DNA of 64,000 nt, taken from positions 4,255-68,254 of the forward strand of contig CAKPPI010000001.1 of the NCBI GenBank assembly GCA_934177545.1. The letters run 5' to 3'. Below, piece by piece: positions 10,423-62,373 of the stretch. The first letter of the stretch is position 1; every line of letters starts with the position of its first letter. The notes beneath the pieces are model-generated. The model ran no database searches, had not been told where the DNA came from, and saw only the letters and a list, made by a program, of their open reading frames with translations. A program made the translations under genes and the position numbers. The DNA is from an uncultured Bacilli bacterium (lineage in GTDB: Bacteria > Bacillota_I > Bacilli_A > RF39 > UBA660).

Positions 10423-10452
10423 TTGACATAGTTCGACAAAATGTGTTATTAT
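10423..10452 (+). promoter_or_regulatory. sigma-A-type promoter driving the rnr leader
   Basis: -35 TTGACA (10423-10428), about 17-18 nt spacer, TG-extended -10 TTATTAT. Confidence 0.5.
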
Positions 10453-10456
10453 TTTA

Positions 10457-10620
10457 TTGGGAAGTTGGTACAACGATTGAGTATAAACTTGTGCTTATCT
10501 TAAAACGATGTGGTATCCATAAATTTTATATCTAGTTGTAAACTTCCCAACACTTACGTAGTAGGTGTAAAGAGGGAAAAATAGTACTCCGATCATTTTT
10601 TCCCTCTTTGTGCCTACTAC
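10457..10620 (+). ncRNA. highly structured 5' leader segment (two long hairpins) preceding the T-box element
   Basis: ttgggaagtt (10457-66) pairs with aacttcccaa (10541-50). A 24-bp stem (10558-10581 with 10596-10620) contains three consecutive G-U wobbles, so it is perfect only as RNA. Confidence 0.45.
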
Positions 10621-10639
10621 ATTTTAATATGTTTGAGCA

Positions 10640-10831
10640 GGGGATATGATAAAATATCAAACTTATTTAGAGACTTCGTGGCTGGTGAAAACGAAGAAGA
10701 AGTATTTTATTACTACCTTTGTGAGTAGAATTATGAAAAGTAATTCCGGGTGACCGTTATTCTAAATAAAGTAAAACAGTGGATGGTACCGTGTTTATAC
10801 ACTCCTATGATTAATCATAGGAGTTTTTTGC
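10640..10831 (+). promoter_or_regulatory. T-box riboswitch leader (candidate Thr specifier) upstream of rnr-thrS
   Basis: Stem-I distal motif GGCUGGUGAAAACGAAG. T-box sequence AGUGGAUGGUACCGUG (about 10779-10793). Terminator hairpin ctcctatga/tcataggag plus T6 (10801-10831). A candidate specifier ACU-A sits in the Stem I 3' strand. Confidence 0.55.
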
Positions 10832-10849
10832 TTTGTGAGGTATATAATT

Positions 10850-13150: not shown

Positions 13151-13162
13151 GAGAGATAAAAA

Positions 13163-14920: not shown

Positions 14921-14925
14921 AAAGA

Positions 14926-14960
14926 AAACTACTAGGATTTGACTCTTAGTAGTTTTTTTC
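14926..14960. terminator. bidirectional rho-independent terminator between thrS (+) and the lipoprotein gene (-)
   Basis: Hairpin actacta...tagtagt with a T7 run on the plus strand. It lies between convergent genes. Confidence 0.55.
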
Positions 14961-20549: not shown

Positions 20550-21184
20550 AAGTTAATTATAATTTAGAGTGTGAAAAGATTCTTAATAGTCTTGATTTAA
20601 ATAATAAGAAGACATTATTATTGCATTCTTGTTGTGCTCCATGCTCATCTGCTGTCTTAGAAAGAATAAGTAAATACTTTAAAATTACTATTTTATTTTA
20701 TAATCCTAATATAACAGATTACTCCGAATATCTTAAAAGAAAAGAGGAATTAAAAAGATTAATTAAAGAAGTAGGCTATGACATAGAAGTAATGGATTGT
20801 GATTATGATAAAGAAAAATTTATTTCTATGGCTTTAGGATTAGAAGATAAAAAAGAAGGAGATATTCGTTGCTATAAGTGTTATAAATTAAGACTTGAAA
20901 AGACAGCTTTAATGGCAAAAGAAAATAACTTTGATTATTTTACTACTACTTTATCAATTAGTCCTTATAAGAATAGTAAGTGGTTAAATGAAATAGGAAA
21001 AGAGTTAAGTGCTAAATATAAAGTTGATTATTTGTATGCTGATTTTAAAAAGAAAAATGGTTATAAAAGAAGTATAGAACTATCTAATATATACCATTTA
21101 TATAGACAAGATTATTGTGGTTGTATTTATTCAAAAGTTGAAAGAGAATCTATTAAAGCCCTTCAAGATCAAAAGGGGGAATAA
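20534..21184 (+). CDS. queH: epoxyqueuosine reductase QueH (DUF208 family)
   Basis: LLLHSCCAPCSS and C-terminal YCGCIYS Cys motifs. Confidence 0.65.
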   Translation: MVGEIKVNYNLECEKILNSLDLNNKKTLLLHSCCAPCSSAVLERISKYFKITILFYNPNITDYSEYLKRKEELKRLIKEVGYDIEVMDCDYDKEKFISMALGLEDKKEGDIRCYKCYKLRLEKTALMAKENNFDYFTTTLSISPYKNSKWLNEIGKELSAKYKVDYLYADFKKKNGYKRSIELSNIYHLYRQDYCGCIYSKVERESIKALQDQKGE

Positions 21185-34833: not shown

Positions 34834-34859
34834 AAGCTTATCTTCTTTGGAAAGAGTAT

Positions 34860-35035
34860 ATTTTTAATTCTATTTAGAGAAAGTATGGCTGGTGAAAATA
34901 CTTATAGAAAAGAAAATAGAAGACATCCATTTAAAAAAAGAAGCGTTAAACCACGATATGGTTATTTAGAGTATAAACTAAGGTGGCACCACAGGAAAAC
35001 CTGTCCTTAATAAGTGTCATCTTTTTATTTTAAGG
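34860..35035 (+). promoter_or_regulatory. T-box leader upstream of hisS-aspS
   Basis: Stem-I distal motif GGCUGGUGAAAAUAC (about 34883-34900). T-box sequence AAACUAAGGUGGCACCACAGG (34975-34995). Only a weak hairpin follows (acagg-aaaa-cctgt) with no immediate U-tract. The 62-aa ORF at 34822-35010 lies inside this leader and is probably not coding. Confidence 0.5.
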
Positions 35036-35044: not shown

Positions 35045-36391
35045 ATGATACAAAGACCAAAAGGAACTAATGATATTTATGGAAGGGAAGCTAAGATTTG
35101 GAAATGTGTAGAAGCAGTAATTGATCAAGTTATGGAAAAGTATAACTATAACTATATAAGAACACCTATCTTTGAATCTAGTGAATTATTTCATAGAGGA
35201 ATAGGAGAAACTACTGATATTGTTACCAAAGAAACCTATGACTTTGTAGATAGAGGAGATAGACATCTTTCTTTAAGACCAGAAGGTACAGCTGGAGTTT
35301 GTAGAAGTTATATTGAAAACAAAATGTATGGAGATGCCAATCAACCAGTTAAAGTTTATTATAATGGAACCATGTATCGTTATGAAAGACCACAATCTGG
35401 AAGAGATAGAGAATTAACTCAGTTTGGTATGGAGATCCTTGGAAGTGATGATCCACTAAGTGATGCAGAAATAATATCAGCAGCTGTAAATATCTACAAA
35501 CTATTAGGATTAAAAGAAATAAAAGTTAATATTAATAGTTTAGGAGATACTGCTTCTCGTAATACTTATCGTGAAGCTTTAGTTGAATACTTTAGACCAC
35601 ATATTGATGAGTTTTGTGATGACTGTAAGGAAAGATTTTTAAAAAATCCTCTTAGAATATTAGATTGTAAAGTAGATGCTGATAATGAAATATTAAAGAA
35701 TGCTCCTAAGACAATTGATTATTTAAATGAAGAATCAAAAGAAAGATTTGAAAAAGTAAAAGACTATCTTGATATTATGCAAATAGATTATGAAGTTAAT
35801 CCAAGTATTGTTAGAGGACTTGATTATTACAATCATACAGTCTTTGAAATAGAAGCAAAAGTAAAAGGCTTTGGAGCTAATAATGTTATAGGAGCAGGGG
35901 GAAGATATAATGGTCTAGTTAAAGAATTAGGTGGACCAGAAACACCATGTATTGGTTTTGCTTCAGGTATTGGTCGTTTAGTAATGGCTCTAGAGCTTGA
36001 ACAAGCTAAATTACCAATTGTAGATAGTATTGACTTATTCTTAATGTATGTTAATGAAGATGAGAAAAAGTATGCTGTTTATCTAGCACAAGAATTAAGA
36101 ATGGCTGGCTTTATCGTTGAGACTGAATACACTGGAAGAAGTTTGAAAGGACAATTTAAGCAAGCTGATAGATTAAATAGTAAATTCTTAGTAATACTTA
36201 ATAGTGAAGATTTAAATAATAATGAAGTAAAAGTTAAAAATAATAAGACTAAAGAAGAAGAAATAATTAGTTTAGATGCTTTAATTTACTATTTAGATGA
36301 AAAATTAACTATTGATAGTGATGATTGTGACTGTGATCATGAATGCAACGGTGAATGTGGTCATGATGGATGTCACTGTAAGGATGAATAG
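35045..36391 (+). CDS. hisS: histidyl-tRNA synthetase with a C-terminal Cys/His-rich tail
   Basis: Class II HisRS motifs including RYERPQSGR and an anticodon-binding domain. There is an extra C-terminal DCDCDHECNGECGHDGCHCKDE. Confidence 0.9.
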   Translation: MIQRPKGTNDIYGREAKIWKCVEAVIDQVMEKYNYNYIRTPIFESSELFHRGIGETTDIVTKETYDFVDRGDRHLSLRPEGTAGVCRSYIENKMYGDANQPVKVYYNGTMYRYERPQSGRDRELTQFGMEILGSDDPLSDAEIISAAVNIYKLLGLKEIKVNINSLGDTASRNTYREALVEYFRPHIDEFCDDCKERFLKNPLRILDCKVDADNEILKNAPKTIDYLNEESKERFEKVKDYLDIMQIDYEVNPSIVRGLDYYNHTVFEIEAKVKGFGANNVIGAGGRYNGLVKELGGPETPCIGFASGIGRLVMALELEQAKLPIVDSIDLFLMYVNEDEKKYAVYLAQELRMAGFIVETEYTGRSLKGQFKQADRLNSKFLVILNSEDLNNNEVKVKNNKTKEEEIISLDALIYYLDEKLTIDSDDCDCDHECNGECGHDGCHCKDE

Positions 36392-36403
36392 GAAGTGTTA
36401 AAT

Positions 36404-38149
36404 ATGAAAACAATAGAAAATAATAGTTTAAGATTAACTGATAAAGATAAAGAAGTAACTCTATATGGTTGGGTACAAAAGAAACGTGACTTAGGAGGAG
36501 TATGCTTTATTGATCTTCGTGATAGAAGTGGTATAGTTCAATTAGTAGCTCGTGAAGGAGATACTTATACTCTTGCTAGTAATCTAAAGAATGAATCTGT
36601 CTTAAAAGTAGAAGGTATTGTTAAAGAAAGAGAATCTAAAAACAAAAATATAGCTACTGGAGATGTTGAAGTTGAATTAACTAATATTGAACTACTAAAT
36701 TCTTCAAGAGATTTACCTTTTGAAATAGCAAATGATACCACTGCCTTAGAAGATACTAGACTAAAGTATCGTTATCTTGATCTTAGAAGAAGTAACTTAA
36801 AAGACAATTTAATAACTCGTCATAAGATTACGCTTGCTATTAGAAACTTCTTAGATAGTAAAGGCTTTATTGAAGTAGAAACTCCAGTACTTTGTAAATC
36901 AACTCCAGAAGGAGCAAGAGACTATTTAGTACCTAGTAGAGTAAATAAAGGAAAGTTTTATGCTCTTCCTCAATCACCTCAATTATTTAAACAATTATTA
37001 ATGGTAGGTGGTATGGAAAAATACTTTCAAATAGCAAAGTGTTTTCGTGATGAAGACTTAAGAAGTGATAGACAACCAGAGTTTACGCAAGTCGATATGG
37101 AAATGAGTTTCGTTAATGAAGAAGATGTAATGAGTATGACTGAAAAGTTAATTGCTCATGTCTTTAAAGAAATTAAAGGAATAGAAATTGAATTACCACT
37201 TAAGAGAATGGAATATGATGATGCTATGAAGTATTATGGCTCTGATAAACCAGACTTAAGATTTGATATGAAAATAACTGATGTTAAAGATATATTTAAA
37301 GATAGTGAATTTAAAGTATTTTCAAATGCACTTGATGAGAAAAGTACTATCGCTTGTATAAAAGTAGATGATAATGCAACGTATTTTTCTAGAAAGAAAA
37401 CTGATGAGTTAACTGAATTTGTAAAAATTTATAAAGCAAAAGGTCTTCCATTTGTAAAATATGAAAATAAAGAGTTTACTGGTGGTATTAGTAAATTCTT
37501 AAGTGATAAAGAAAAAGAAGAGTTAGTTAAAAAACTAGAACTTAAAGATAATGATATCTTATTCTTTGGAGCTGATAACAAAATGATAGTTTATCAGACA
37601 TTAGGTGCTTTAAGATGTAAATTAGCTCGTGACTTAGACCTTATCAAAAAAGGTGATTACAAATTATTATGGGTTACTAAATTTCCATCATTTGAGTGGA
37701 GTGAAGAAGAAAATAGATTTGTTGCTTGTCATCATCCATTTACAGCACCACTTGACAGTGATGTAGATAAACTTTTAACTGATAAAGCACATTGCTACTC
37801 TAAAGCTTATGATATTGTTATTAATGGCTATGAAGCGGGTGGTGGATCTATTCGTATCCATAATGAAGAAGTTCAAGAGAAAATGTTTGAAGCTTTAGAA
37901 TTAACTAAAGAAGATATTGATGAGAAGTTTGGTTTCTTTGTTGAAGCTTTGAAATATGGAACACCACCTCATGGTGGACTTGCTATTGGACTAGATCGTC
38001 TTACTATGTTATTAACTGAAACTGATAACATTCGTGATGTAATAGCTTTTCCGAAGACTGCTAGTGCTAGTTGTTTGATGAGTGAAGCTCCTAATAAGGT
38101 TGCTAAAAAACAACTTGAAGATTTAGGTGTAAAATTAGAAAAAGAATAA
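36404..38149 (+). CDS. aspS: aspartyl-tRNA synthetase (bacterial type with GAD insertion), copy 1
   Basis: An OB-fold N-terminus, [20 protein letters not shown] and GGGSIRIH motifs. 582 aa from ATG 36404. Confidence 0.9.
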
Positions 38150-41639: not shown

Positions 41640-42461
41640 TTATCCTAATTTAATAATACTAACCCTTGCTCCTGTATTACTATCAAGTGTTAAGGTAAGT
41701 CCTGTTGCTGAATTAGCTACAAAATCTATAACATCTCCTGTAGCTAGAGTAGTAATGATACTTCCTGTGAATAATTTATTTTCATTAGCAGGAGCATTTA
41801 AAGTAATAGAGCTGCTATCAATTTCTGTATTATTTTTTCTAACAAATACGGTTATATCTGCTTGTTGGGAACTAGAAGCATCTAATAAATAGTAGATTTG
41901 GTAAGTACCAGCATCTCCTACAGTAATAGCATTAGAAGTAGTATAAGTAGTATTTAAACTAGGACCATTTGTTTGTAAAGGAATTTGTCCATCTTGATTA
42001 GGAGTAAGCGTTACTGTTTCAGCACCTTCTGTGTATCTTTCACCGTATGCTGCTATTCCTCCAGTAGGTCCAGTAGGTCCAGTGGGTCCTGTAGGTCCAG
42101 TAGGACCAGTTGCTCCAGTTAAACCAATAGGACCAATATTACCCTGAGGTCCAGTTGGCCCTGTTGGCCCAGTAGGACCCGTAGCACCTGTAGCACCAGT
42201 TAAACCAATAGGACCAATATTACCTTGAGGCCCAGTAGGTCCAGTGGGTCCTATACTTCCTCTTGGAATAGAAAAGTCTAAGATGACATTCTCATTAGTT
42301 CCACTATTAGTAACCGAAGCATTACTACCAGCATCAGTTGTAGTAGTAGTTCCTACCGTAATAGTAGCAGCACCAGCGGGTCCAGTAGGTCCAGTGGGTC
42401 CTTGTACATAACAAAACTTACATCTTGTTTTTTCTTTATTTTCATTACAGTTATCAAACAT
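41640..42461 (-). CDS. collagen-like triple-helix repeat protein with a C-terminal globular (BclA/C1q-like) domain
   Basis: More than 40 G-X-Y triplets ([22 protein letters not shown]...). It contains an ~81-bp internal direct repeat. Local GC is elevated. Confidence 0.8.
42058..42255 (-). repeat. GXY collagen triplet repeat tract containing an ~81-bp direct duplication
   Basis: The unit ccagttaaaccaataggaccaatattacc(c/t)tgagg occurs twice about 81 bp apart. Confidence 0.7.
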
Positions 42462-47880: not shown

Positions 47881-47906
47881 TTAGCACTTAGGAAAAAGAG
47901 TGCTAA
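47881..47906 (+). promoter_or_regulatory. CIRCE operator (HrcA binding site)
   Basis: TTAGCACTT-aggaaaaa-GAGTGCTAA is a near-consensus inverted repeat immediately upstream of hrcA. Confidence 0.85.
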
Positions 47907-47920
47907 GGTGGTGCTTAATA

Positions 47921-48913
47921 ATGGATATGTTATCAAAAAGACAAGAACAATTATTAAAAATGATTGTTGAAAATTATATAAAGCAAGCAACTCCCGTTAG
48001 TAGTAAGCAACTATGTAAAAAACTAAAATGTTCTAGTGCTACTATTAGGAGTGAGATGGCAAATCTTGAAGAGGCAGGACTCTTAGAAAAAACACATACA
48101 TCCAGTGGTAGAATACCTAGTCAAAAAGGATATCGTTATTATGTAGATAACTTATTGAAACCTAGAAGAATGAATGGTGAAGATATGTTAAATCTACAGA
48201 TAATTTTACATAATCAATCATTAGAATTATCAGATTGTATTTCTAAGAGCTTGCAATTAGTTTCTGATATGACTAGTTATACAGCAGTAGTATTAGGTCA
48301 AACTTCTCATGATAACTTATTAAAAGAAGTTAATGTTGTTCCCTTGGCTGATAATCAGTTAATAATGATAGTAGTGACTGATAAAGGAAAAGTGGAACAT
48401 AAGACGGTAACGCTAGATCAAGTTAATATGAACGATGTTAAGAAAACGGTTGATTTGATTAATAAACTAATAGTTGGTACACCAATTGATGAGATTAGTA
48501 CTAAACTTGAGTTTGAAATTAAACCAATCATTGGAAACTATGTTGAGCAACATGAAAAACTATATGATGTTATTTATCACGTCTTTGATGATTTAACTCA
48601 TCCTGATATCAATGTAGTAGGAAGAACTAAATTTTTGGAACAACCAGAGTTTGGTAGCATTGATAAAGTAAAAGGGTTATTTGCTAAGTTAGATGATCAA
48701 GACTTAATAAAAGAAATTAAACAAGATAATTCTAATAATATTGAGGTTTATATCGGAAGTGAAAATAATATTGATTCTGATGTAACCGTTATAAAGACTG
48801 GCTTTAAAACGAAAAATGAGGAAGGAACAATTGCTATAATTGGACCAAAGAGAATGGAATATGAGCGAGTTATGAGTTTACTAGAATTTATTAAAGATAA
48901 TATTGAAGGGTGA
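47921..48913 (+). CDS. hrcA: heat-inducible transcription repressor HrcA
   Basis: N-terminal winged HTH MLSKRQEQLLKMIVENYIKQATPVSSKQL. Start ATG at 47921 with an AAGGTGGTG RBS. Confidence 0.9.
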   Translation: MDMLSKRQEQLLKMIVENYIKQATPVSSKQLCKKLKCSSATIRSEMANLEEAGLLEKTHTSSGRIPSQKGYRYYVDNLLKPRRMNGEDMLNLQIILHNQSLELSDCISKSLQLVSDMTSYTAVVLGQTSHDNLLKEVNVVPLADNQLIMIVVTDKGKVEHKTVTLDQVNMNDVKKTVDLINKLIVGTPIDEISTKLEFEIKPIIGNYVEQHEKLYDVIYHVFDDLTHPDINVVGRTKFLEQPEFGSIDKVKGLFAKLDDQDLIKEIKQDNSNNIEVYIGSENNIDSDVTVIKTGFKTKNEEGTIAIIGPKRMEYERVMSLLEFIKDNIEG

Positions 48914-49545
48914 TGAAAATGGAAAAAGAACATAAAAAGCATAAACATGAGCATAATAATCAAGAGAAACATGAAGAGAAGAAATGTAATTGTGAGAAAA
49001 CTTGTGCATGTCAAGATGAAAAATGTGAATGTAAGCATGATAAAGTAGAAGAAAGGCAAACAGAAGAAATTGAAAAATTAAGAAATCAATTAACAGAAAT
49101 CTTAAATGAAAAACAAAACTTGTTAGAAAAATTACAATATAGTAAAGCAGAAATGATTAATTATCGTAAACGTAAAGAAGAAGAAACTGATAATAAATTA
49201 AAGTATGCTAATCAAGATTTAATCTTAGAAATAATACCAGTACTTGATAATTTTGAGAGGGCTATTAAGTTAGATGATAATGATTTAACTGATGAGTTAT
49301 CAAAATTCTTAACTGGTTTTAAGATGATGTATGCTTCCCTTTGTGAAGTGTTAAAAAAATTTGGTGTTGAAGAAATCGACTGTGAGGGTAAAGAATTTGA
49401 TGCCAATACTATGCAAGCACTAATGACTGATAGTGATTCTAACTTTGGAGATGAGATAGTTTTAGATGTATTATTAAAAGGATATCGTTTAAAAGATAGA
49501 GTTATTAGACCAGCTAGTGTAAAAGTAAATAAGATAGAGAAATAG
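48910..49545 (+). CDS. grpE: nucleotide exchange factor GrpE with an N-terminal Cys/His-rich extension
   Basis: GrpE core (IPVLDNFERA...). The first ~45 aa are rich in His, Lys and Cys (KHKHEHNNQEKHEEKKCNCEKTCACQDEKCECKHDK). Confidence 0.85.
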   Translation: MMKMEKEHKKHKHEHNNQEKHEEKKCNCEKTCACQDEKCECKHDKVEERQTEEIEKLRNQLTEILNEKQNLLEKLQYSKAEMINYRKRKEEETDNKLKYANQDLILEIIPVLDNFERAIKLDDNDLTDELSKFLTGFKMMYASLCEVLKKFGVEEIDCEGKEFDANTMQALMTDSDSNFGDEIVLDVLLKGYRLKDRVIRPASVKVNKIEK

Positions 49546-51384
<1,839 letters not shown>

Positions 51385-51388
51385 TAAT

Positions 51389-51418
51389 CTAAAAGTTCTA
51401 GGTGACTAGAACTTTTAG
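51389..51418 (+). promoter_or_regulatory. perfect 13-bp hairpin with GTGA tetraloop, no U-tract, directly after dnaK
   Basis: ctaaaagttctag-GTGA-ctagaacttttag. It may be an attenuator or an RNA stability/processing element separating dnaK from the downstream genes. Confidence 0.5.
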
Positions 51419-51440
51419 CCTAATAATAGAAAGAGGATAT

Positions 51441-53231
51441 ATGAAACAATATAAGAATAGAGAAGAAGTAGAGGAAAAATATAAGTGGGATTTAACGGAA
51501 TACTATAAAAGTGATGATGAGTTTTTTGAAACTTACTCTAAACTAAATAAAGAGTTAGATATATTAAAAAATTATGTAGGGTGTACTACTGATTCTTTTA
51601 AACTCTATGAATATTTAGATAAAGAAATTAAATATGAAACAGAAATTGAAAGAATGTATATTTATGCTAGTGTAAGAAATGATGAATTGTTAGGACAACC
51701 TATTCCTTTAGATATGTTAAATAAAGCTAGCTTATTAATAACTAAATTAAATAATTTAACAGCTTTTTTCAATCCGGAGTTATTAAAAATAACAAGCACT
51801 TCTTATAAACAATTATTTATTACTAATAATAAATTAAATGATTATAAGCCATATTTAGATGATATCTATCGTTATAAAGAACACGTTTTAAACGAAGAAG
51901 AAGAGAAATTAGTAACTTCTTTAGTATCTGCTACTGATGACTTTAGTAATATTTCTTCTAACTTGCTTAATGGTGAACATAATTATGGTAAAGTAATAAT
52001 TAATGAACATGAGAAAGTTGAGTTAACAACAACTAATTCTCGTTTTCTTAAAACTTCTAAAGATAGAAAGGTTAGAAAACAAGCTGATACAAAGTTATTA
52101 AAGAAAGCAAGTGAATACGCCTCAACCTCAGCTAGTCTTTTGAATGGGTATGTTAAATTAAAGGATACATTAGCAGGTATTTATCACTTTAGTGATTCTT
52201 TAGAAGCAAAATTATTTTCCAATGAGTTAAATGTTAAAGTATATGATACTTTATCAAAAGTAGTTAGAGAAAATGTTTCATCATTACAAAGATATTATAA
52301 AGTAAGAAAGAAGATACTTGATCTAGATGAATTATATACTTATGATTTATTGGCAAAACTTTCTAATTCTACTAAAGAATATTCAATAGAAGAAGCACAA
52401 CAAATTGTAAGAGAAGCTTTAAAACCATTAGGAGAAGACTATTTAGCTAAGTATGATAAGATAATTAAGAACAGGTATATTGATTACTGTCAATATAAAG
52501 GTAAATGTAGTGGTGGCTATTCTATTAGTGGACATGAGAATAATTCAAGAATACTTATGAGTTATAATTATGATTTCGAATCTATTTCAACTATTGCTCA
52601 TGAAGCTGGTCATAATATTAATCATCAGTATTTAATTGAAAATAATTTTCTACCTTACCGTGAGAATGCTATAATTAATGCTGAAGTTACTTCCTTAATA
52701 AATGAGTGTTTACTTGCAAATTATATGATTAAGAATGCTAAAACTAAGGAAGAAAAGATACTTGGACTTGAAAATATTATTGGTGTTATTGAATCTAACT
52801 TATTCGGTGCTACTCGCGAATGTGATATGGAACGTTTAATGTATGAACATGTTCATAATGGTAATTGTTTAACTAAAGAATTCATGGGTAAAATAACTAA
52901 AGATTCGCTAAAATATTATTATGGTAAAGAAGTTAAACTAACTAAGTATAGTCCATATAACTGGATATATAGAAGTCATTATTATATGAATTTCTACTTA
53001 TATAGCTATGCTATTTGTATATCAGTAGCATCTCACTTAGCAAGTGACATATTAAATGGTAATAAGGAAACACTTGATAAATACTTAAAATATATTAAAA
53101 CTGGTTCAAATGTTACTCCTCTCGATACTTTTAAAATATTAGGTGTAGATTTAGAAAAAGAAGATGTTTATCTAGATGCTATTAAATATTTTGATAGTTT
53201 AGTAGATGAACTTGAAGAATTAACAAAATAG
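51441..53231 (+). CDS. pepF: oligoendopeptidase F (M3B family)
   Basis: HEAGHNINH zinc motif. The N-terminus [12 protein letters not shown] is PepF-like. Start ATG at 51441 with an AAGAGGA RBS. Confidence 0.8.
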
Positions 53232-53242
53232 GAGGTACAAGT

Positions 53243-54385
53243 ATGGCAACTAAAAGAGATTATTATGAGGTGTTAGGTGTTAGTAAAAGTGCTAGTCAAG
53301 ATGAAATAAAGAGTGCTTTTAGACGTCTTGCAAAGAAATATCATCCGGATATTAGTAAAGAAGAAAATGCTGAAGAAAAATTTAAAGAAGTACAAGAAGC
53401 ATATTCAGTTTTGTCAGATGAAACTAAAAGAAAACAATATGATCAATTTGGTCATGCAGCTTTCCAAGGCGGAGCAGCTGGTGGTAATCCTTATGGAGGT
53501 TTTTCATCAGGTGGTTTTGGCTTTGATGCTAGTGACTTAGGAGATATTTTCGAAGACTTATTTGGTGGAGGCTTTGGAGGTTTCTCTAGTGGCAGTAGTA
53601 GAACAAGTAATAGAAAACAACGTGGTAGTGATATGCTACTTAGAATGAATCTTACTTTTGAAGAAGCAGTATTTGGTTGTGAGAAGGATATAGATGTAGA
53701 TGTAATTGATGAATGTGATAATTGTCATGGTAAAGGTGGTTTTGATGAGAAAACTTGTTCAAGATGTCATGGTAGTGGAACAGTTACGGTAGAACAAAGA
53801 ACAATTTTAGGTTCATTTGTTACTAAATCAACTTGTCCTGATTGTAAAGGAAAAGGTAAGACTTTTGCCAAAACTTGTTCAGATTGTCGTGGAACAGGTA
53901 CTGTCAAGGTAAGAAAAACTATTACTGTACACGTTCCTGCTGGAATAGATAATGGAGAAAGATTAAGATTAGCAGGTAAAGGACATGCTTCCCCTAATGG
54001 TGGAGAGTCAGGCGACTTGTATTTAGAGTTTACCATCAAAGAACATGACTACTTTAAAAGAGATGGTAATGATATCTACTTAGAAGTACCAATTACTATT
54101 GTAGAAGCAACACTAGGCTGTAAAAAAGAAATACCAACTATCTATGGTAATATAACTGTATCTGTACCAGCTGGAACTGATAGTGGTACTAAACAACGAG
54201 TAAGAGGAAAGGGCATCAAAGACGATAGAAGAAGAACAGGGGATATGTATATAATCTATCGAGTACAAACTCCTAAAAAACTTTCAAGAGATCAGAAAAA
54301 ACTATTTGAGTCCCTTGCTAATACCGACTTTAAGGATATAGATATTGATAGATTTGATAAATTTACAAGAAAGAATGAATCTTAA
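53243..54385 (+). CDS. dnaJ: molecular chaperone DnaJ
   Basis: J-domain with HPD (KYHPDIS), a G/F-rich region and four CxxCxGxG zinc-finger repeats. Confidence 0.95.
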
Positions 54386-54449: not shown

Positions 54450-54941
54450 ATGAAAAAAGAAAAATGGTGGGGTACAATTCTTCTTCTATTAATAATAATG
54501 TTTAGTTTTATGACTAAGGATGATATAACAACAGATACAGTTTATGTTACTAATACAAATATGACTTTTGAAATAGAAAACTTAACTAAAAAAATTAATA
54601 TAGATGATATCTCTTATGAAGAAATTAATTCAAAAGAAAAAATACTAACCATTAATAATTCCAAAGAAATAACTTATCAACTAGCAGAATCTTATTTATC
54701 TAGTGATTTCCTAAAGAAATATCCAAACTTTATTTTTAATAATGAAAGGTATCAGATATTTACCGTTATTTATAATAAAGACATTAAAGTATTAAATAAC
54801 CATTTAGACTATATAAATGAATTGCAAGAGTTATCTAACTATTATATATTTTATGAACCGAGATTAGATGATGAAATTATATTATTAAGAGTTGTAAAAG
54901 AGAATAAAGAAATAGTATTAGGTGCTACAAAATTTAAATAA
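54450..54941 (+). CDS. hypothetical membrane-anchored protein (163 aa)
   Basis: An N-terminal TM segment WWGTILLLLIIMF. No family recognised. Confidence 0.45.
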   Translation: MKKEKWWGTILLLLIIMFSFMTKDDITTDTVYVTNTNMTFEIENLTKKINIDDISYEEINSKEKILTINNSKEITYQLAESYLSSDFLKKYPNFIFNNERYQIFTVIYNKDIKVLNNHLDYINELQELSNYYIFYEPRLDDEIILLRVVKENKEIVLGATKFK

Positions 54942-54959
54942 AATCACCAAAAATAATTG

Positions 54960-55231
54960 ACAAGTTATAAAATAGTATTGTAAACTTTACTAGAAAACGT
55001 TGATGAAGAGAAGTAGTAATACTTGACTTATAAGAGAAGCTGTGGTTGGTGAAAACAGTTAAGAAAAGTATTAACGAATAACACTTCGGAGTGCTTAAAG
55101 AATAAAGTAGACTAAGCCGGGTAGACTCCCGTTAACAAGATAAGCGATTATCATGCTTGATAATAAATTGGGTGGTACCGCGGGTAAAAGACTCGTCCCT
55201 TAACTGGGATTAGAGTCTTTTTCGTTTTCTA
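54960..55231 (+). promoter_or_regulatory. T-box leader (candidate Asn AAC specifier) upstream of gatCAB-aspS2
   Basis: Stem-I distal motif GGUUGGUGAAAACAGUU. T-box sequence AAAUUGGGUGGUACCGCGG (55166-55184). Terminator aagactc...gagtctt followed by a T-run (55187-55231). Confidence 0.65.
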
Positions 55232-55249
55232 AAGAAAGGACTGATAAAT

Positions 55250-55558
55250 GTGATAACTAAAGAAATGCTAAAAGACTATGCTAGAAAGTTAATGTTTGAC
55301 ATGGATGATAATGAGTATGAAACCTTAGAAGATGAGTTTAAAACTATTCTTAAACAAATGGAACTTATCGAAAATATTCCTAATATAAAAAAGACAGAAC
55401 CATTATTTTATCCATATGTCTCATATGAAGCGAAGCTTAGATGTGACGAGATTAATGAAATGGAGATGCTTTCTGTTAATGAGGTGTTAGAAAATACAGA
55501 ACATCAAGTAAGAGATCAAGTAAAAGTACCAAGGGTGGTGGAAGCTGATGAATTATAG
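55250..55558 (+). CDS. gatC: Asp-tRNA(Asn)/Glu-tRNA(Gln) amidotransferase subunit C
   Basis: About 100 aa and acidic, immediately upstream of gatA. GTG start at 55250; the alternative is ATG at 55265. Confidence 0.8.
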   Translation: MITKEMLKDYARKLMFDMDDNEYETLEDEFKTILKQMELIENIPNIKKTEPLFYPYVSYEAKLRCDEINEMEMLSVNEVLENTEHQVRDQVKVPRVVEADEL

Positions 55559-56996
55559 AAAATGTTTAATTAGTGATTTAAGAGAAAATTTAGATGATGG
55601 TAGTATAACTAGTGAAGAACTATTTAATGAAGCAGTTAGTCTTGCTAATAAGTATCAGGATCCTTATAACTGTTTTGTAACTATCTGTGATAAGTTTAAG
55701 ATGAAGAAAAGAACTACGCCACTAGCAGGTATACCTTATGCTTTAAAAGATAATATTTCAACTAGTAATATTTTAACAACAGCATCTAGTAACATCTTAA
55801 AAAATTATGTACCAGTCTATGATGCGACAGTTTATAAGAAATTAAAGAATGCTGGAGCAGTATTAGTTGGAAAAACCGTTTTAGATGAACTTGCTATGGG
55901 TGGAACTGGAACAACTGGACATACTGGAATAGTTAGAAATCCTTATGACAAGACAAGAGAGATTGGTGGATCAAGTGCAGGAAGTGCTGCTGCAGTTGCT
56001 CTTGGAATTGTACCTTTTGCTATTGGAAGTGATACTGGTGACTCTATTAGAAAACCAGCTGCTTTTGGCGGAGTGGTTGGCTATAAACCAACATATGGTT
56101 TAATATCTCGTTATGGTCTATTTGCTTTTGCTTCAAGCCTTGATCATGTTGGTTGCTTTGCAAGAAGTGTTAAAGATGTCGCTTTAGTTACTAATACTAT
56201 TAAAGGATATGATCCTCATGATATGACTACTTATCAAGATGATAGTGATTTACTATCTGGTATCGATGAACCGTTAGCAGGTAAAAAGTTATTTTATATC
56301 AAAGAAATAGTAGATAGAAGCTTATATAAAGAAGACGATGATGAGTTGATGCAAGTATTAGATAACTTTTATTCACTTCTTGAAAGATTAAAAACTAGGG
56401 GAGCAGAAATAACAGAAGTATCCATTGATAAAGCGTTACTAGAAGCGATATATCCTACTTATATGACTATATCTTGTGCCGAAGCGACTAGTAATAACTC
56501 TAACTTAACAGGAATAGCTTTTGGAAATAGAGTAGCTAAAGATGATGTTAATAGTCTAATAACTGCTACTAGAACAGAAGGCTTCTCAGAACTTATTAAA
56601 AGACGTTTTGTCCTAGGTAGTTATATTTTACAAAAAGAAAATCAAGAGAAACTTTATCTAAATGCCTGTCGAGTTAGAAGATTATTAGTAGATAAATTAA
56701 CAAATCTTTTCAAAGAATATGATAGCTTAATCTTACCTTGTAGTGGTGGACCTGCTCCTAAGTTTGATGATGATAGTGACAAGCTAAGTGATAAATACCT
56801 ATTATTAGAAAACCATATGGCACTAGGTAACTTCGGAGGATTCCCATCAATTACTATCCCATCAGGATTTGTAAATAACTGTCCAATTGGTATTAACCTT
56901 ACTAGTGGAATAAAAGAAGATAAGAAAGTATTAAATATTGCTAATGAGATAGAAATGCTAACCGGTCTTAAAGGACAAATAGGAGGTGAAGAGTAA
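55548..56996 (+). CDS. gatA: amidotransferase subunit A (amidase signature family)
   Basis: GGSSAGSAAAVA amidase signature. 482 aa. Confidence 0.9.
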   Translation: MNYRKCLISDLRENLDDGSITSEELFNEAVSLANKYQDPYNCFVTICDKFKMKKRTTPLAGIPYALKDNISTSNILTTASSNILKNYVPVYDATVYKKLKNAGAVLVGKTVLDELAMGGTGTTGHTGIVRNPYDKTREIGGSSAGSAAAVALGIVPFAIGSDTGDSIRKPAAFGGVVGYKPTYGLISRYGLFAFASSLDHVGCFARSVKDVALVTNTIKGYDPHDMTTYQDDSDLLSGIDEPLAGKKLFYIKEIVDRSLYKEDDDELMQVLDNFYSLLERLKTRGAEITEVSIDKALLEAIYPTYMTISCAEATSNNSNLTGIAFGNRVAKDDVNSLITATRTEGFSELIKRRFVLGSYILQKENQEKLYLNACRVRRLLVDKLTNLFKEYDSLILPCSGGPAPKFDDDSDKLSDKYLLLENHMALGNFGGFPSITIPSGFVNNCPIGINLTSGIKEDKKVLNIANEIEMLTGLKGQIGGEE

Positions 56997-58423
56997 TGTA
57001 TGATGTAGTTATTGGACTTGAAGTACACTGTGAATTAGATACGTTATCTAAAAACTTTTCAAGTAGTGAAAATAGTTATACTAAGATTCCTAATATTCAC
57101 GTTTCACCAGTTGATTTAGGACTACCGGGAATATTACCTGTTGTAAATGAAAAAGCTTGTTATAATGCTTTAAGAACAGCGATGGCTCTTCACTGTGAAA
57201 ATCCTGATGAGATAATGTTTGATCGCAAGAACTATTTTTATCCCGACCTTCCTAAAGGCTACCAAATAACTCAAGTTACTAAACCAATGGGAAGAAACGG
57301 TTACTTAGATATATTAGTAGATGGTTCTATCAAAAGAGTATTAATTCATCAGTTACATCTAGAAGAAGATACAGCTAGTCTAGAGCATGATAAGAACTAT
57401 TCCCTAATAGATTATAACCGTAGTGGTATACCACTAATGGAAATAGTAACAGAACCATGTCTTACCAGTGCTCTTGAAGCAGTAACTTTTCTAGAAGACT
57501 TAAGAGATGTCTTCTTATATCTAGGAGTTAGTGAAGCAAAGACTGATAAAGGTCAGATGAGATGTGATGTTAATATCTCTTTAAAAGAAAAAGGTAGTGA
57601 TAAGCTTGGTACTAAAGTCGAGATGAAAAACATTAACTCATTCACAAGTGTCAAAGAAGCGATAGAATATGAAATAAAAAGACAAAGTGAAGCCTTGGCT
57701 AATGGCGAGAAGATAATTCAAGAGACAAGACGAATTGATGAGACGGGAAAAACTCACTCTATGCGTGAAAAAGTAGATGCCATTGATTATAAATACTTTG
57801 TCGATGCTAACTTACCACCAGTTAAAATAACGGATGCTAAGAAAGAAGAACTAAGAAGTTCTATTCCTAAATTAAAACTAGATAGAATTTTAACTTATCA
57901 AAAAGAACTAGGACTAGATTATTATGATGCTTCTATTATTGCTAAAGAAAGAGACCTAGCAGACTACTTTGAAGAGACTGTAAAAGATGTAAGCTTAGCT
58001 GTTAACTTTATAACAACTAGTATCTTATCAACTTTAAATAAACTAGAAATTACTATTGAAGAGTTAGTAGTAACTCCTTCAATGCTAAGTAGTTTAATAA
58101 ACTTAGTAAGTAGTGATAAGTTATCACTTGATCATGCTAAGAAAATACTTTATAAAGCAATAGAATTAAAAACTGATCCTATTAAATTAATAGAGAAAGA
58201 AAATTTGTCACAAATAAACGATAAAGATGAATTAATTAAATACATAAAAATAGAGTTTGATAAATATCCTAATCAAGTAGAACAATATATAAAAGAAGAT
58301 AATTTATCAGTTATTAATTTCTTTATGGGAAAAGTTATGTCATCTACTAAAAGACAAGCTAATCCTAATATGACAAGAGAATTAATCAAAGAAGAACTAG
58401 AAAGGATGAAGAAGAATGATTAA
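56996..58423 (+). CDS. gatB: amidotransferase subunit B
   Basis: MYDVVIGLEVHCEL N-terminus and a GatB/YqeY C-terminal domain. Confidence 0.9.
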   Translation: MYDVVIGLEVHCELDTLSKNFSSSENSYTKIPNIHVSPVDLGLPGILPVVNEKACYNALRTAMALHCENPDEIMFDRKNYFYPDLPKGYQITQVTKPMGRNGYLDILVDGSIKRVLIHQLHLEEDTASLEHDKNYSLIDYNRSGIPLMEIVTEPCLTSALEAVTFLEDLRDVFLYLGVSEAKTDKGQMRCDVNISLKEKGSDKLGTKVEMKNINSFTSVKEAIEYEIKRQSEALANGEKIIQETRRIDETGKTHSMREKVDAIDYKYFVDANLPPVKITDAKKEELRSSIPKLKLDRILTYQKELGLDYYDASIIAKERDLADYFEETVKDVSLAVNFITTSILSTLNKLEITIEELVVTPSMLSSLINLVSSDKLSLDHAKKILYKAIELKTDPIKLIEKENLSQINDKDELIKYIKIEFDKYPNQVEQYIKEDNLSVINFFMGKVMSSTKRQANPNMTRELIKEELERMKKND

Positions 58424-60161
58424 AAATATATATCGTGACTGCTATGCTGGTAGTCTTAGAGAAAAAGATATTGATAAAGAAGTAAAAGTAGCTGGTTTCA
58501 TTGAAAATATAAGAGACCATGGTGGAGTAATCTTTGTTGATTTAAGAGATTACTATGGAACACTACAATTAGTTAGTAATGATGATAAGATGTTTGATGA
58601 TTTAACAAGAGAGTCATCTGTTACAGTAACAGGAAAGATTCGTAAAAGAGATAGTGATGACTATAATGATCGAATTGAAACTGGTACTATTGAATTATTA
58701 GTTAGTTCTATAAAGGTACTTGGTAAGAGTAAGAATGTTTTACCATTTGAAGTTATGACTAGTAAAGATGTATCAGAAGATGTAAGACTAAAGTATCGTT
58801 ATCTAGATTTAAGAAATCCTAAAGTTAAACAATCTATTCTATTTAGAAATAAAGTTATTCACTTTTTAAGAAACTTAATGGAAAGTGAAGACTTTGTTGA
58901 ACTACAAACTCCAATCTTAACTTCATCATCTCCTGAAGGAGCAAGAGACTTTCTAGTACCTAGTAGAAAATATAAAGGAAAGTTTTATGCCCTACCACAA
59001 GCTCCTCAACAATTTAAACAACTACTAATGTGTGCTGGTTTTGATAAATACTATCAAATAGCACCATGCTTTAGAGATGAAGATGCAAGAAGTGACCGTG
59101 TTTATGGTGAATTCTATCAATTAGACTTTGAAATGGCTTTTTCAACTGAAGAAGATGTCCTAAGAATGGGTGAGAAAGTATTTTATGAAACATTTAGGGA
59201 GTTTGCTAAAGATAAAGATATATCAGAACCACCATTTATTAGATTAACTTATAAAGAAGCGATGGAAAAGTATGGTTCTGATAAACCAGATTTAAGAAAT
59301 CCTTTAGTTATAATTGATTTAACAGAAGAGTTTGAAGAGACAGAATTTCGTCCTTTTAGAGGTGTACCAGTTAAAGGAATAAAAGTAGAAAACTTAGCTA
59401 GTAAGAGTAATTCTTGGTTTAATGAGGTAGTTGATTATGCCAAAAGTATTGGTATGCCAGGAATTGGTTATTTAAAAGTAAATGAAGATTTATCATTTGC
59501 TGGTCCTATTGATAAGTTTTTAACTGAAGATGAACGTGAAGCTTTAATAGATAAAGCTGATCTTAAGAAAGATGATGTCTTATTCTTTATAGCAGATCGT
59601 AAAAAATCGCTAGAACTAGCTGGTTCTATTAGAATGGAGTTAGGTAGAAAACTTGATTTAATGGATCCTAATAAATATGTCTTTGCTATCATTCATGACT
59701 TTCCAATGTTTGAGTGGGATGAAGAAAATGAATGCTATACTTTCATGCATAATCCATTTAGTATGCCAAAAGATGGAATGAAAGGGCTTGATCAAAAAGT
59801 AGAAGACATTCTAGCTTATCAATTTGACTTTGTTTGTAATGGTGTAGAATTATCTAGTGGAGCAGTTAGAAACCATGACTTAGAAATCATGAAGAAAGTC
59901 TTTGCAATAGCAGGTTATGAGGAAGAAGAAATCGAAAAGAGATTTAAAGCTTTATATGAAGCTTTCCAATATGGAGCACCACCTCATGCTGGTATGGCCC
60001 CTGGACTTGATCGTATTCTAATGATGCTTCTAGATGAAGACTCTATTAGAGAAACAATCGCATTCCCAATGAGTGCTTCAGGAAGTGATATCTTAATGAA
60101 TGCTCCAAGTACTGTTACAGAACAACAATTAAGAGAAGTACATATCAAAGTAAGAGATTAG
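58416..60161 (+). CDS. aspS: aspartyl-tRNA synthetase, copy 2 (likely the non-discriminating AspRS, given operon context)
   Basis: Full-length bacterial-type AspRS with FRDEDARSDR and a GAD domain. It overlaps the gatB stop. Confidence 0.85.
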   Translation: MIKNIYRDCYAGSLREKDIDKEVKVAGFIENIRDHGGVIFVDLRDYYGTLQLVSNDDKMFDDLTRESSVTVTGKIRKRDSDDYNDRIETGTIELLVSSIKVLGKSKNVLPFEVMTSKDVSEDVRLKYRYLDLRNPKVKQSILFRNKVIHFLRNLMESEDFVELQTPILTSSSPEGARDFLVPSRKYKGKFYALPQAPQQFKQLLMCAGFDKYYQIAPCFRDEDARSDRVYGEFYQLDFEMAFSTEEDVLRMGEKVFYETFREFAKDKDISEPPFIRLTYKEAMEKYGSDKPDLRNPLVIIDLTEEFEETEFRPFRGVPVKGIKVENLASKSNSWFNEVVDYAKSIGMPGIGYLKVNEDLSFAGPIDKFLTEDEREALIDKADLKKDDVLFFIADRKKSLELAGSIRMELGRKLDLMDPNKYVFAIIHDFPMFEWDEENECYTFMHNPFSMPKDGMKGLDQKVEDILAYQFDFVCNGVELSSGAVRNHDLEIMKKVFAIAGYEEEEIEKRFKALYEAFQYGAPPHAGMAPGLDRILMMLLDEDSIRETIAFPMSASGSDILMNAPSTVTEQQLREVHIKVRD

Positions 60162-60192
60162 CTATAGAACACTCTATAGTTTTTCTTTTTAT
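60162..60192 (+). terminator. rho-independent terminator after aspS2
   Basis: ctatag-aacact-ctatag followed by tttttcttttt. Confidence 0.5.
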
Positions 60193-60270
60193 AGTTTGAC
60201 ATATTAACTGTATAAAATTAGTTTAAAACTAAAAATTAATTGAAAATCACCCCCTCTTTGTGTTAGAATC

Positions 60271-61060
60271 TAATTAAAGATAAGGAAGAGGTGATTACTA
60301 TGTATTTGTCAACCATAATGTCAAGTTTACAATTAGTTAACATGGGGGGGGCAATTTATATAGATTAATCACTTCTTTTTATCATGCATTAATAACGGGA
60401 TAGGACTAGTCTTATCTTGTTTTTTAGTGTAAATAAAATAGAAGGAGTGAATAAGAAAAATGAACAACAAGAAACAACTACTATTATCAATCGGACTTGT
60501 TTTAATACTAGTTCTAATGATAGTAGGAATCAGTTATGCAGCTTTTAAGTTTACTGGAACAGGTCAAAAAGCCAATACTATAACAACAGGTGCAATTACT
60601 ATGAAGTATACAGAGTCAACTAATACAATAAGTATGAATAATGCTCTACCAACAACTGATGCTACTGGGAAAGTAAGATTAACAGCTGGAGAATACTTTG
60701 ATTTTACTTTATCAGGTACAATTAAAGGATCAGAAAACATCAACTGGGAGATAGCAGCAGAAGATGTAACAACAGCATCTAGAAAGATAGATGGTAAATA
60801 TATAAAACTATATTTAACAAGTCTAGATGACACTGGTAATGAGAAAGAGGTAATGGTACCTAAAGTATATAAAACTGAATCAACAGAAAATACATATACT
60901 GGACGTCCTGCTAATATGATGAGTCTAGCTAAAGGAACAACATCTACAAGCTTCTCTACAAAATACCGTCTTAGAATGTATGTAGATGAAAGTTATAACC
61001 CGCAGGGAGATGGAGGAAACTTAGCATTTAGTATAAAGATAAATGCTTATGGTAAAACAG
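60271..61060 (+). repeat. copy 2 of the ~0.8 kb duplicated promoter/5'-CDS segment (G8 tract at 60344-60351)
   Basis: Near-identical to 16165..16960. The homopolymer length differs by one G. Confidence 0.85.
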
Positions 61061-62373
61061 GTGAAATGATGCTTTCTACAGTAGCAGAAGCACTACAAAG
61101 CAATGGACTAGGAGCAAATGGAGTATTTGATACAAGTGACCCAGAGCAGACATTTGTTACTGGAACAGGTCCTGATAACTATATTTGGTATAGTGGAAAA
61201 CTATGGAGAGCAGTATCAATAGATTCAACTGATAACTCTGTAAAATTAGTAACACAGTGGAATATATCAGCCTTACCATATAATGAAGAAAATAATTCTG
61301 AATTTAAAGGAAGCTATATGGAGCAGTGGTTGAATGATACTTCAGTAGATGGTTTCTTAGGAAACCTAAGAGAACCAGATAAATTTATTAAAACAGATAG
61401 TGTTTGGAATGCTACTATGACTAAGGAAACTACAAAGCCAGAGAAGACTACCATGGTAACAGATACTGTAGGTTTACTAAATTTTTATGAGTATACAATG
61501 AGTTACAAAAATGCTAAAGCTGAAACTGGCTATTTAAATAATGGTTTAGAGTGGTGGACGTTGACACCTTATAGTACGTCGAACGTCCGTTACGTCGAGG
61601 GCCGCGGTTACAGCAGCAGCTATAGTCCGGCGCATTCGGATGGCTCTCGCCCATCTATAAATCTAAAATCTGCTGTAAAAATTATAGACGGTGATGGAAC
61701 CAGTAATAATCCGTACAGGCTTCAAGGCGATAATGATAATCCAACAGGAGCATTGTTATCAACAAGATATAGTGGTGAATATATAAGTTTTGGAACCGGC
61801 GAAAATGATCTGTATCGAATAGTAAGCCATGAAAATGGAACTGGTACTAAAATAACAAGTGCTATACCTATAAAATATAGTGGTAGTTATAAAGAGCTTG
61901 CTTTTGGAAGTAATACAACATTTTCTAAAGATAATACAATAGGAACGTTCTTAAATAGTGATTATTTGACAAATGGTACCTATCTAACTAGTGACCAAGT
62001 AAGTATGATAGAAGATAATACAACATGGTATTTGGGAACTGTAGGATATGCTAGTTATAAATTAGCAAAATATCAAGATGCAACAGGTAGCAATCTAACA
62101 ACATCAACTACTACTGCTCAAATAGGACTACTAAGAGTAGGTGAATTAATGGCAGGACAATTTGACAAATATAATAATAATGTTAGTTATTGGACATTAA
62201 CACCTTATAGTACCTCGTACATCCGTGGCGTCAGCTACACCGGTGTCAACGGCGGCTTTCATCCGGCGAATTCGTACGGCTCTCGCCCATCTATGAATCT
62301 AAAATCTAATGTGATAATAACTGGTGGAAAAGGTACGGCTCGGGAACCATTCACTATAAAGTTAGGTAGCTAA
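60460..62373 (+). CDS. secreted or surface protein paralog with a distinct C-terminal region that carries two GC-rich motif repeats
   Basis: The N-terminal ~200 aa are near-identical to the 16354 protein. The C-terminus contains the motifs WWTLTPYSTSNVRYVEGRGYSSSYSPAHSDGSRPSINLKS and YWTLTPYSTSYIRGVSYTGVNGGFHPANSYGSRPSMNLKS. Confidence 0.75.
   Translation: MNNKKQLLLSIGLVLILVLMIVGISYAAFKFTGTGQKANTITTGAITMKYTESTNTISMNNALPTTDATGKVRLTAGEYFDFTLSGTIKGSENINWEIAAEDVTTASRKIDGKYIKLYLTSLDDTGNEKEVMVPKVYKTESTENTYTGRPANMMSLAKGTTSTSFSTKYRLRMYVDESYNPQGDGGNLAFSIKINAYGKTGEMMLSTVAEALQSNGLGANGVFDTSDPEQTFVTGTGPDNYIWYSGKLWRAVSIDSTDNSVKLVTQWNISALPYNEENNSEFKGSYMEQWLNDTSVDGFLGNLREPDKFIKTDSVWNATMTKETTKPEKTTMVTDTVGLLNFYEYTMSYKNAKAETGYLNNGLEWWTLTPYSTSNVRYVEGRGYSSSYSPAHSDGSRPSINLKSAVKIIDGDGTSNNPYRLQGDNDNPTGALLSTRYSGEYISFGTGENDLYRIVSHENGTGTKITSAIPIKYSGSYKELAFGSNTTFSKDNTIGTFLNSDYLTNGTYLTSDQVSMIEDNTTWYLGTVGYASYKLAKYQDATGSNLTTSTTTAQIGLLRVGELMAGQFDKYNNNVSYWTLTPYSTSYIRGVSYTGVNGGFHPANSYGSRPSMNLKSNVIITGGKGTAREPFTIKLGS

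Follow-up and report, generated by a model that had tools for sequence, protein, structure and literature searches.

A T-box leader with an asparagine specifier in front of gatCAB and a second aspartyl-tRNA synthetase gene in uncultured gut Bacilli

Why does a bacterium carry a second, full-length gene for aspartyl-tRNA synthetase (AspRS) behind the three genes of the amidotransferase GatCAB, and what controls such a unit? The question is raised by a 64,000-nucleotide stretch of DNA from an uncultured Bacilli bacterium (GenBank assembly GCA_934177545.1, contig CAKPPI010000001.1, positions 4,255 to 68,254), hereafter the window. In it, an RNA leader is followed on the forward strand by gatC, gatA, gatB and aspS2, the gene of the second synthetase (AspRS2); the other synthetase gene, aspS1 (AspRS1), stands elsewhere in the window, behind hisS. 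Very probably, the leader is a transcription-attenuating T-box for tRNA-Asn that gates a single gatC-gatA-gatB-aspS2 transcript, in which the indirect route to Asn-tRNA(Asn) is encoded in full. The RNA family, the position of the codon, the conserved structure, the operon layout and the protein signatures were all established by sequence analysis. The leader and its promoter comprise the following elements:

54957..54986, + strand, sigma-70-type promoter TTGACA-18 nt-TAAACT (promoter scan, 10/12 matches)
54991..55203, + strand, T-box leader with Stem I, Stem II/IIA-B region, Stem III and antiterminator (RF00230)
55076..55083, + strand, 3′ strand of the specifier loop, GAA-U-AAC-A (position in the Rfam alignment)
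55165..55183, + strand, conserved T-box sequence AAAUUGGGUGGUACCGCGG (string search and Rfam alignment)
55186..55231, + strand, leader terminator, hairpin and U-run (folding, covariation)

The Rfam T-box model RF00230 matches the leader over its full length (cmscan, model positions 1–219) and scores 141 bits, where the gathering score is 93 (E = 2.1e-31). An earlier note on this DNA, made from the letters without database searches, had recognised a T-box with the string AAAUUGGGUGGUACCGCGG and a terminator at 54960–55231. The Infernal check bears out the family and finds the string at 55165–55183, and the start coordinate of the note falls at the promoter. The UGGU bulge of the T-box sequence occupies 55173–55176 and would pair with the NCCA 3′ end of a tRNA. 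The terminator of the note was recovered as well: the hairpin at 55186–55221, followed by UUUUUCGUUUUC, has a folding energy of −18.4 kcal/mol (z = −3.3, with 0 of 200 shuffles equally good) and covaries among relatives. The 5′ arm of this hairpin shares bases with the antiterminator's 3′ half, so the two folds are mutually exclusive. A consensus terminator scan, which needs at least three G-C pairs, misses both this terminator and the AU-rich one at the end of the operon; folding detects both.

The tRNA that the leader reads was sought in the codon columns of the Rfam alignment. These are filled by AAC (Asn) at 55080–55082, the conserved purine, A at 55083, comes next, and the basal helix CUUC/GAAG lies 3′ of the purine; the posterior probability is maximal ('*') throughout. 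Applied to the two other T-boxes of the window, the same rule gives ACU (Thr) for the thrS operon and GAC (Asp) for the leader before hisS-aspS1. The predicted specifier is confirmed as AAC, an Asn codon, in agreement with the earlier note, which had reached it from AAC-A standing where its 'leader 1', the T-box at 10623–10809, has ACU-A. The call does depend on a consensus alignment, and the triplets AUA, UAA and ACA also lie within the loop, so that the leader could be imagined to sense another tRNA, for instance through ACA (Thr) or AUA (Ile), its link to Asn being coincidental. Given the exact fit of AAC to the codon columns, the purine and helix that follow it and the codons which the rule returns for the thrS and hisS-aspS1 leaders, such a shifted frame is scarcely credible. 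The discriminator-pairing base of the UGGN bulge also speaks against it, being U in the window leader and C in the orthologous leader of locus L009. Both bases fit tRNA-Asn because both can pair with G73, which this tRNA carries. Bacterial tRNA-Thr and tRNA-Ile usually carry A73, with which C would not pair.

The precedent that the earlier note named for T-box control of transamidation does exist, in Clostridium acetobutylicum (Saad et al. 2012, J Biol Chem 287:20382; Saad et al. 2013, PNAS 110:12756; summarised in PMC4206432, PMC4052509 and PMC4574755). According to PMC4206432, PMC4052509, PMC4574755 and PMC11404447, the genes of an AspRS and of one GatCAB set share an operon there under a tRNA-Asn-dependent T-box (Saad 2012), and the leader binds both tRNA-Asn and tRNA-Glu, its specifier loop being larger and its codons overlapping (Saad 2013). 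The window leader might likewise sense tRNA-Asn and tRNA-Glu, balancing two pathways. Besides the behaviour of this homologous leader, such double sensing is favoured by the loop GAAAGAACA of a Clostridia relative (locus L025), which contains GAAC, and by the length of the window's own loop strand, 8 nt, a class said to permit dual reading. However, the specifier loop of the window leader is GAAUAACA, in which the triplet overlapping AAC one base upstream is UAA, a stop codon, and the only GAA is the conserved pre-codon element of the Rfam consensus GAAauuca. The overlapping GAA/AAC arrangement is thus replaced by UAAC, which is invariant in seven species. We regard double sensing as very improbable here, and a single specificity is expected instead of the two found in C. 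acetobutylicum.

The extent to which the unit is conserved was assessed among relatives. AspRS2 shares 99–100% identity with proteins that bear the labels 'MAG: Bacilli bacterium' (MAG standing for metagenome-assembled genome) and 'Clostridium sp. CAG:451', and a scan of species-representative genomes with AspRS2 yielded 80 loci. The T-box-gatCAB-aspS2 unit was found in seven species-level gut Bacilli genomes (L001–L006 and L009; AspRS2 identity 76–99%); two further loci, L007 and L008, are truncated where their contigs end. The seven genomes belong to the Clostridium sp. CAG:451/Candidatus Onthousia group, including Ca. Onthousia faecigallinarum, and were recovered from the guts of humans, chickens and rabbits. 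Seven leaders were aligned, that of the window and those of L002–L006 and L009. The specifier loop (string GAAUAACAC), the T-box sequence and the −35 box TTGACA are invariant in 7/7, and the −10 box is kept as TAAAAT or TAAACT. In Stem I of the window leader, AGUA...GAA-U-AAC-A, the bulge AGAGA and the loop GGUUGGUGAAA at the distal end all align to the consensus. Across the seven leaders, standard pairs occupy 88.6% of the base-pair cells, against 38–50% in controls with slid partners, and eight pairs have changed on both sides, five of them among the six pairs of the distal Stem I helix. The terminator behaves similarly, with 88.2% of its cells paired across the seven species and five pairs changed on both sides.

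The four-gene core is also the same in independent assemblies (L081–L084), where an identical core is accompanied by strain-variable flanks. The regions at 54450–54941 and 60460–62373 encode DUF285, SpaA/TED and DUF6273 surface proteins, which vary between strains of one species, and one independent assembly has a wholly different set of genes around gatCAB-aspS2. Since the flanks differ and the core is fixed, the operon can be said to lie between strain-variable surface-protein regions.

The genes behind the leader, and the element that closes the operon, are as follows:

55250..55558, + strand, gatC, 102 aa, GTG start (TIGR00135, Pfam GatC)
55548..56996, + strand, gatA, 482 aa (TIGR00132, Pfam Amidase)
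56996..58423, + strand, gatB, 475 aa (NF004012, Pfam GatB_N and GatB_Yqey)
58416..60161, + strand, aspS2, 581 aa, bacterial-type AspRS (NF001750; Pfam tRNA_anti-codon, GAD, tRNA-synt_2)
60162..60190, + strand, likely operon terminator, AU-rich hairpin CUAUAGA-N4-UCUAUAG followed by UUUUUCUUUUU (sequence, ViennaRNA)

The gatC-gatA-gatB-aspS2 operon of the earlier note is upheld by family matches and by overlapping open reading frames (ORFs). The overlaps between consecutive ORFs measure 11, 1 and 8 nt and leave no gap inside the unit, and the promoter scan found 26 promoter-like sites inside the operon, as against 31 expected by chance. The likely terminator lies directly 3′ of the aspS2 stop codon (−11.1 kcal/mol for 60156–60200). 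From this layout we infer that the four genes are co-transcribed behind the leader. GatB and AspRS2 score far above their thresholds: 545 bits versus a cut-off of 338 for GatB (NF004012), with both Pfam domains matched, and 732 bits versus 443 for AspRS2 (NF001750), in which the OB-fold, GAD (48 bits) and class II core domains are all present. GatC reaches 35.4 bits over the whole TIGR00135 profile, short of its cut-off of 47.1, and 24.6 bits with Pfam GatC (cut-off 23). GatA reaches 446.5 bits over positions 2–463 of the 466 in TIGR00132, under the cut-off of 481.1, and 353.6 bits with Pfam Amidase, above the cut-off. The orthologues of gatC start with ATG at the position of the window's GTG. 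Automated annotation may leave GatC and GatA of this clade as 'amidase' or hypothetical proteins; in the gene table of the independent assemblies, no Pfam family is given for the 102-aa GatC.

The window holds two AspRS genes, each of them behind a T-box and with different specifiers, Asp for aspS1 and Asn for aspS2. The first belongs to this group of features:

34840..35011, + strand, T-box upstream of hisS and aspS1, with GAC-A (Asp) as specifier and UGGC as bulge (82.9 bits with RF00230, short of its gathering score, 93; E = 1e-18)
35045..36391, + strand, hisS, directly upstream of aspS1
36395..38149, + strand, aspS1, 584 aa, Leu-type motif RDLGG (NF001750, 854 bits)

The separate aspS that the earlier note had placed after hisS is this aspS1. 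Behind such a leader, hisS would be regulated by the charging of tRNA-Asp. AspRS1 and AspRS2 are 42% identical. Their anticodon-binding N-terminal domains were aligned to those of all solved AspRS structures, among them the following (organism, structure, motif, type):

H. pylori AspRS, 5gro, RDHGG, deposited as Asp/Asn ligase
M. tuberculosis AspRS, 4rmf, RDHGG, deposited as Asp/Asn ligase
M. smegmatis AspRS, 4o2d, RDHGG, deposited as Aspartate--tRNA ligase
P. aeruginosa AspRS, 4wj3, RDHGG, deposited as Asp/Asn ligase
E. coli AspRS, 1c0a, RDLGS, discriminating
T. thermophilus AspRS1, 1efw and 6hhv, RDLGG, discriminating (6hhv deposited as Asp ligase)

AspRS2 has the motif RDHGG, with His35, in its anticodon-binding OB fold; this His aligns with that of the H. 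pylori, M. tuberculosis, M. smegmatis and P. aeruginosa enzymes, and the Leu of AspRS1 with the Leu of the E. coli and T. thermophilus AspRS1 enzymes. The His of RDHGG stands at the position H31 of P. aeruginosa. Bernard and colleagues reportedly tied H31 to tRNA-Asn recognition in 2006, and a second position, G83, is said to be 'usually Gly'. Scored in 79 related AspRS loci, the position holds His in 13, Leu in 65 and Met in one. Linkage to gatCAB is seen for 11 of the 13 with His, the exceptions being two hisS-aspS enzymes from Verrucomicrobiota-type MAGs, and for none of the 65 with Leu. From these signatures we infer that AspRS2 is of the non-discriminating type, which the earlier note had thought probable, and AspRS1 of the discriminating type, with tRNA specificities to match. 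Discriminating enzymes typically prefer their own tRNA by a factor of 500–2,250.

In a neighbour-joining tree, which is rough and without support values, the clade of AspRS2 (L001–L010, with His and gat linkage) has as its sister clade the Leu-type enzymes of related gut Bacilli (L011–L016). The two leaders found in this sister clade, in L011 and L015, have the Asp specifiers GAC and GAU. Because the Leu-type sister clade carries Asp specifiers and the AspRS2 clade His together with AAC, the riboswitch codon and the enzyme residue would, on that evidence, have changed together between the sister clades. Two other notions about AspRS2 were discarded. Its variant motif 2 (DRVYGEFYQLD) does not mark an enzyme dedicated to tRNA-Asn, as the form DRxxGEFYQLD belongs to the whole subfamily, Leu-type stand-alone enzymes included. 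Nor is AspRS2 a recent duplicate of AspRS1: the two share only 42% identity, AspRS2 is 51–57% identical to other Bacilli and Clostridia enzymes, and AspRS1 falls outside the subfamily on a long branch of the rough tree.

Put together, these parts would operate as a switch. Transcription would start at the promoter TTGACA/TAAACT. Once tRNA-Asn (anticodon GUU, G73) builds up in uncharged form, its anticodon would pair with AAC and its free NCCA end with the UGGU bulge; this pairing would stabilise the antiterminator and let RNA polymerase read into the operon. With tRNA-Asn charged, the 55186–55221 hairpin would form and transcription would end. Of the products, AspRS2 would load Asp onto tRNA-Asn and GatCAB would amidate that Asp to Asn. 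The Asp-specifier T-box would separately control the discriminating-type AspRS1, serving tRNA-Asp. For tRNA binding, antitermination, the AspRS specificities and the in vivo role of GatCAB, this scheme draws on the known families and on the analogy with C. acetobutylicum.

Several points weigh against the scheme. The mechanism is a prediction from sequence. The anticodon, G73 and U1-A72, the pair that GatCAB requires, are assumed for the host tRNA-Asn; a tRNA-Asn gene was found neither in the 64-kb window nor in 14 related loci. GatC and GatA stay under the NCBIfam equivalog cut-offs, although both pass those of Pfam. At the position of G83, AspRS2 has Asp (RKRDSDDYN) versus the Gly of RPEG/RGAG in the Asp/Asn ligases, so that it departs from the second signature; AspRS1 has Lys there. 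The rule of His and Leu is correlative, not absolute. The T-boxes of L029 (9718–9901) and L018 (1–227) appear to have the loop GUGAAACA, with AAC-A overlapping the conserved GAA, and stand upstream of a Leu-type and a Met-type AspRS, respectively, with no gatCAB in either locus; these leaders either break the association of His with Asn sensing or read GAA (Glu).

A further objection comes from glutamine. Nearly all Firmicutes analysed in a survey of 2008 are without glutaminyl-tRNA synthetase (GlnRS) and need GatCAB for Gln. Were the host likewise without GlnRS, it would depend on this GatCAB for Gln-tRNA(Gln) as well, which an Asn-only sensor leaves unexplained. Taken to its end, the objection would make Gln-tRNA(Gln) the main product of GatCAB, the usual situation in Bacilli, AspRS2 a redundant discriminating enzyme and the Asn codon physiologically minor. 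Bacterial GatCAB enzymes do handle both substrates in vitro, and profile searches of the 64-kb window gave no second gatCAB. The same searches gave no asnS, asnA, asnB or glnS. Against the Gln reading stand the AAC specifier and its leader, kept in seven species; the His signature of AspRS2, a residue that tracks linkage to gatCAB; the overlap of aspS2 with gatB by 8 nt; and a relative, locus L010, in which asnS has been added to the same kind of operon. Because of these four features the unit appears to be organised around Asn, and a Gln housekeeping role with an incidental Asn codon is highly unlikely. A dual role of GatCAB for Asn and Gln is fully compatible with tRNA-Asn control of the operon.

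The earlier note had counted canonical asnS and asnB among the findings that would contradict its proposal, which is too strict, because C. acetobutylicum has asparaginyl-tRNA synthetase (AsnRS) as well as asnB, and L010 carries asnS inside its own Asn T-box operon. The L010 locus (8001–15093, in a rabbit-gut Bacilli MAG) has a T-box of 89.9 bits with the loop GAAAAAACG and an AAC-G specifier, behind which follow orf184, asnS (628 bits), a His-type aspS (57% to AspRS2) and gatCAB; direct and indirect routes to Asn-tRNA are there predicted in one Asn T-box operon. With the L010 AsnRS as probe, the 120 matches listed were confined to proteins at least 76% identical to it; within that listing, none lies on the 1.3–1.4 Mb contigs typical of the host species. 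The Clostridia MAG locus L025 (5828–10995) has a T-box of 135 bits followed by a His-type aspS and gatA-gatB, and its GAAC corresponds to the string of overlapping GAA and AAC described for the two-codon T-box of C. acetobutylicum.

The system of the window is of the same kind as that studied experimentally in C. acetobutylicum; its extension to this clade looks unreported but incremental. Like the 'NT-box' of C. acetobutylicum, it combines a T-box with an AAC specifier, an AspRS and a full GatCAB in one operon and a further AspRS in the genome, and expression of the indirect Asn-tRNA(Asn) pathway would likewise be tied to the charging of tRNA-Asn. It differs in that one of three AspRS genes is under T-box control there, whereas here both are, one through Asp and one through Asn. 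C. acetobutylicum is a large-genome solventogenic Clostridium and one of the Clostridiaceae that have AsnRS besides GatCAB; the present host is an uncultured member of the gut Bacilli, with an identical AspRS2 on contigs of up to 1.35–1.44 Mb. The gene order is gatCAB-aspS2 here, in contrast to aspS-gatCAB in L010 and L025. We take the order in C. acetobutylicum to be aspS-gatCAB, i.e., also reversed.

Other known systems resemble the locus in part. The bacterial-type non-discriminating AspRS of P. aeruginosa, H. pylori and Mycobacterium share with AspRS2 the GAD architecture, the His of RDHGG and a genomic association with GatCAB. They differ from it in the Gly of the loop after the motif (Asp in AspRS2) and in motif 2, which is DRxxGEFYQLD in AspRS2; moreover, each of these organisms has one AspRS, while AspRS2 coexists with the Leu-type AspRS1. 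T. thermophilus and D. radiodurans do pair a discriminating AspRS with a second AspRS for tRNA-dependent Asn synthesis with GatCAB. However, their second enzyme is of archaeal type, about 420–440 aa long and without GAD, whereas both enzymes are of bacterial type here, and T-box control is absent there. The synthetase T-boxes of Firmicutes (RF00230) have the same full canonical architecture and terminator/antiterminator switch; the cargo differs, being here an amidotransferase and, as predicted, a mischarging synthetase. The 2008 survey recorded no amidotransferase gene of Firmicutes with a T-box in front of it, and a full-text literature search gave no further account linking T-box riboswitches and GatCAB beyond C. 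acetobutylicum.

As far as that search reached, C. acetobutylicum is the only organism in which experiments have shown T-box control of tRNA-dependent amidation. The locus would show that the T-box logic of the indirect route is conserved across a clade of uncultured Bacilli of animal and human guts, and in a simpler form than in C. acetobutylicum, with a single codon and a separate sensor for each of the two AspRS paralogues. The Leu-type sister clade with Asp specifiers, the His clade with Asn specifiers, the L010 variant with asnS and the L025 variant with GAAC provide a comparison set for the joint change of specifier and anticodon-binding residue. The case also bears on how GatCAB is regulated in organisms that need it for two tRNAs. 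For annotation, aspS2 of these genomes would be better named aspartate--tRNA(Asp/Asn) ligase than treated as a generic duplicate.

A bolder version of the proposal can be put forward only tentatively, and we hold it to be rather doubtful. In it, the T-box-gated gatCAB would be the sole amidotransferase of a genome without AsnRS and GlnRS; AspRS2 and GatCAB would act as an 'AsnRS in trans', with AspRS1 under the Asp sensor; and the specifier (GAC/GAU to AAC) and the residue (Leu to His) would have shifted together. The supply of both Asn and Gln aminoacyl-tRNA would then be gated by a single-codon tRNA-Asn sensor. If the lineage is truly without GlnRS and has only this GatCAB, such gating would extend to Gln-tRNA(Gln).

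The remaining T-box of the window controls other genes:

10623..10809, + strand, T-box ('leader 1'), specifier ACU-A (Thr), 59 bits, E ~ 1e-10, below the gathering score

An RNase R/VacB-like ORF at 10835–13150 (TIGR02063, 414 bits, under the cut-off of 598) is the first of its operon, and thrS (13163–14920) begins 13 nt past that ORF; an exoribonuclease leading a Thr T-box operon is unusual. A queH gene for epoxyqueuosine reductase (235 bits) lies at 20534–21184 on the + strand. Queuosine modifies position 34 of the tRNAs for Asn, Asp, His and Tyr, which include the Asn and Asp tRNAs of two T-boxes of the window. The heat-shock cluster hrcA-grpE-dnaK-dnaJ occupies 47900–54385 on the + strand, with a pepF-like oligoendopeptidase gene (51402–53231; 425 bits, under the cut-off of 490) between dnaK and dnaJ. 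Two surface-type proteins are also encoded in the window: a PARCEL-repeat surface lipoprotein at 16312–18099 (+), matching TIGR02167 and resembling Mbov_0838 of Mycoplasma bovis, and, at 41640–42461 (−), a protein that combines collagen repeats with a C-terminal BclA domain. The PARCEL-repeat type is usually tied to Mollicutes and Listeria, and the collagen-repeat/BclA type to Bacillus.

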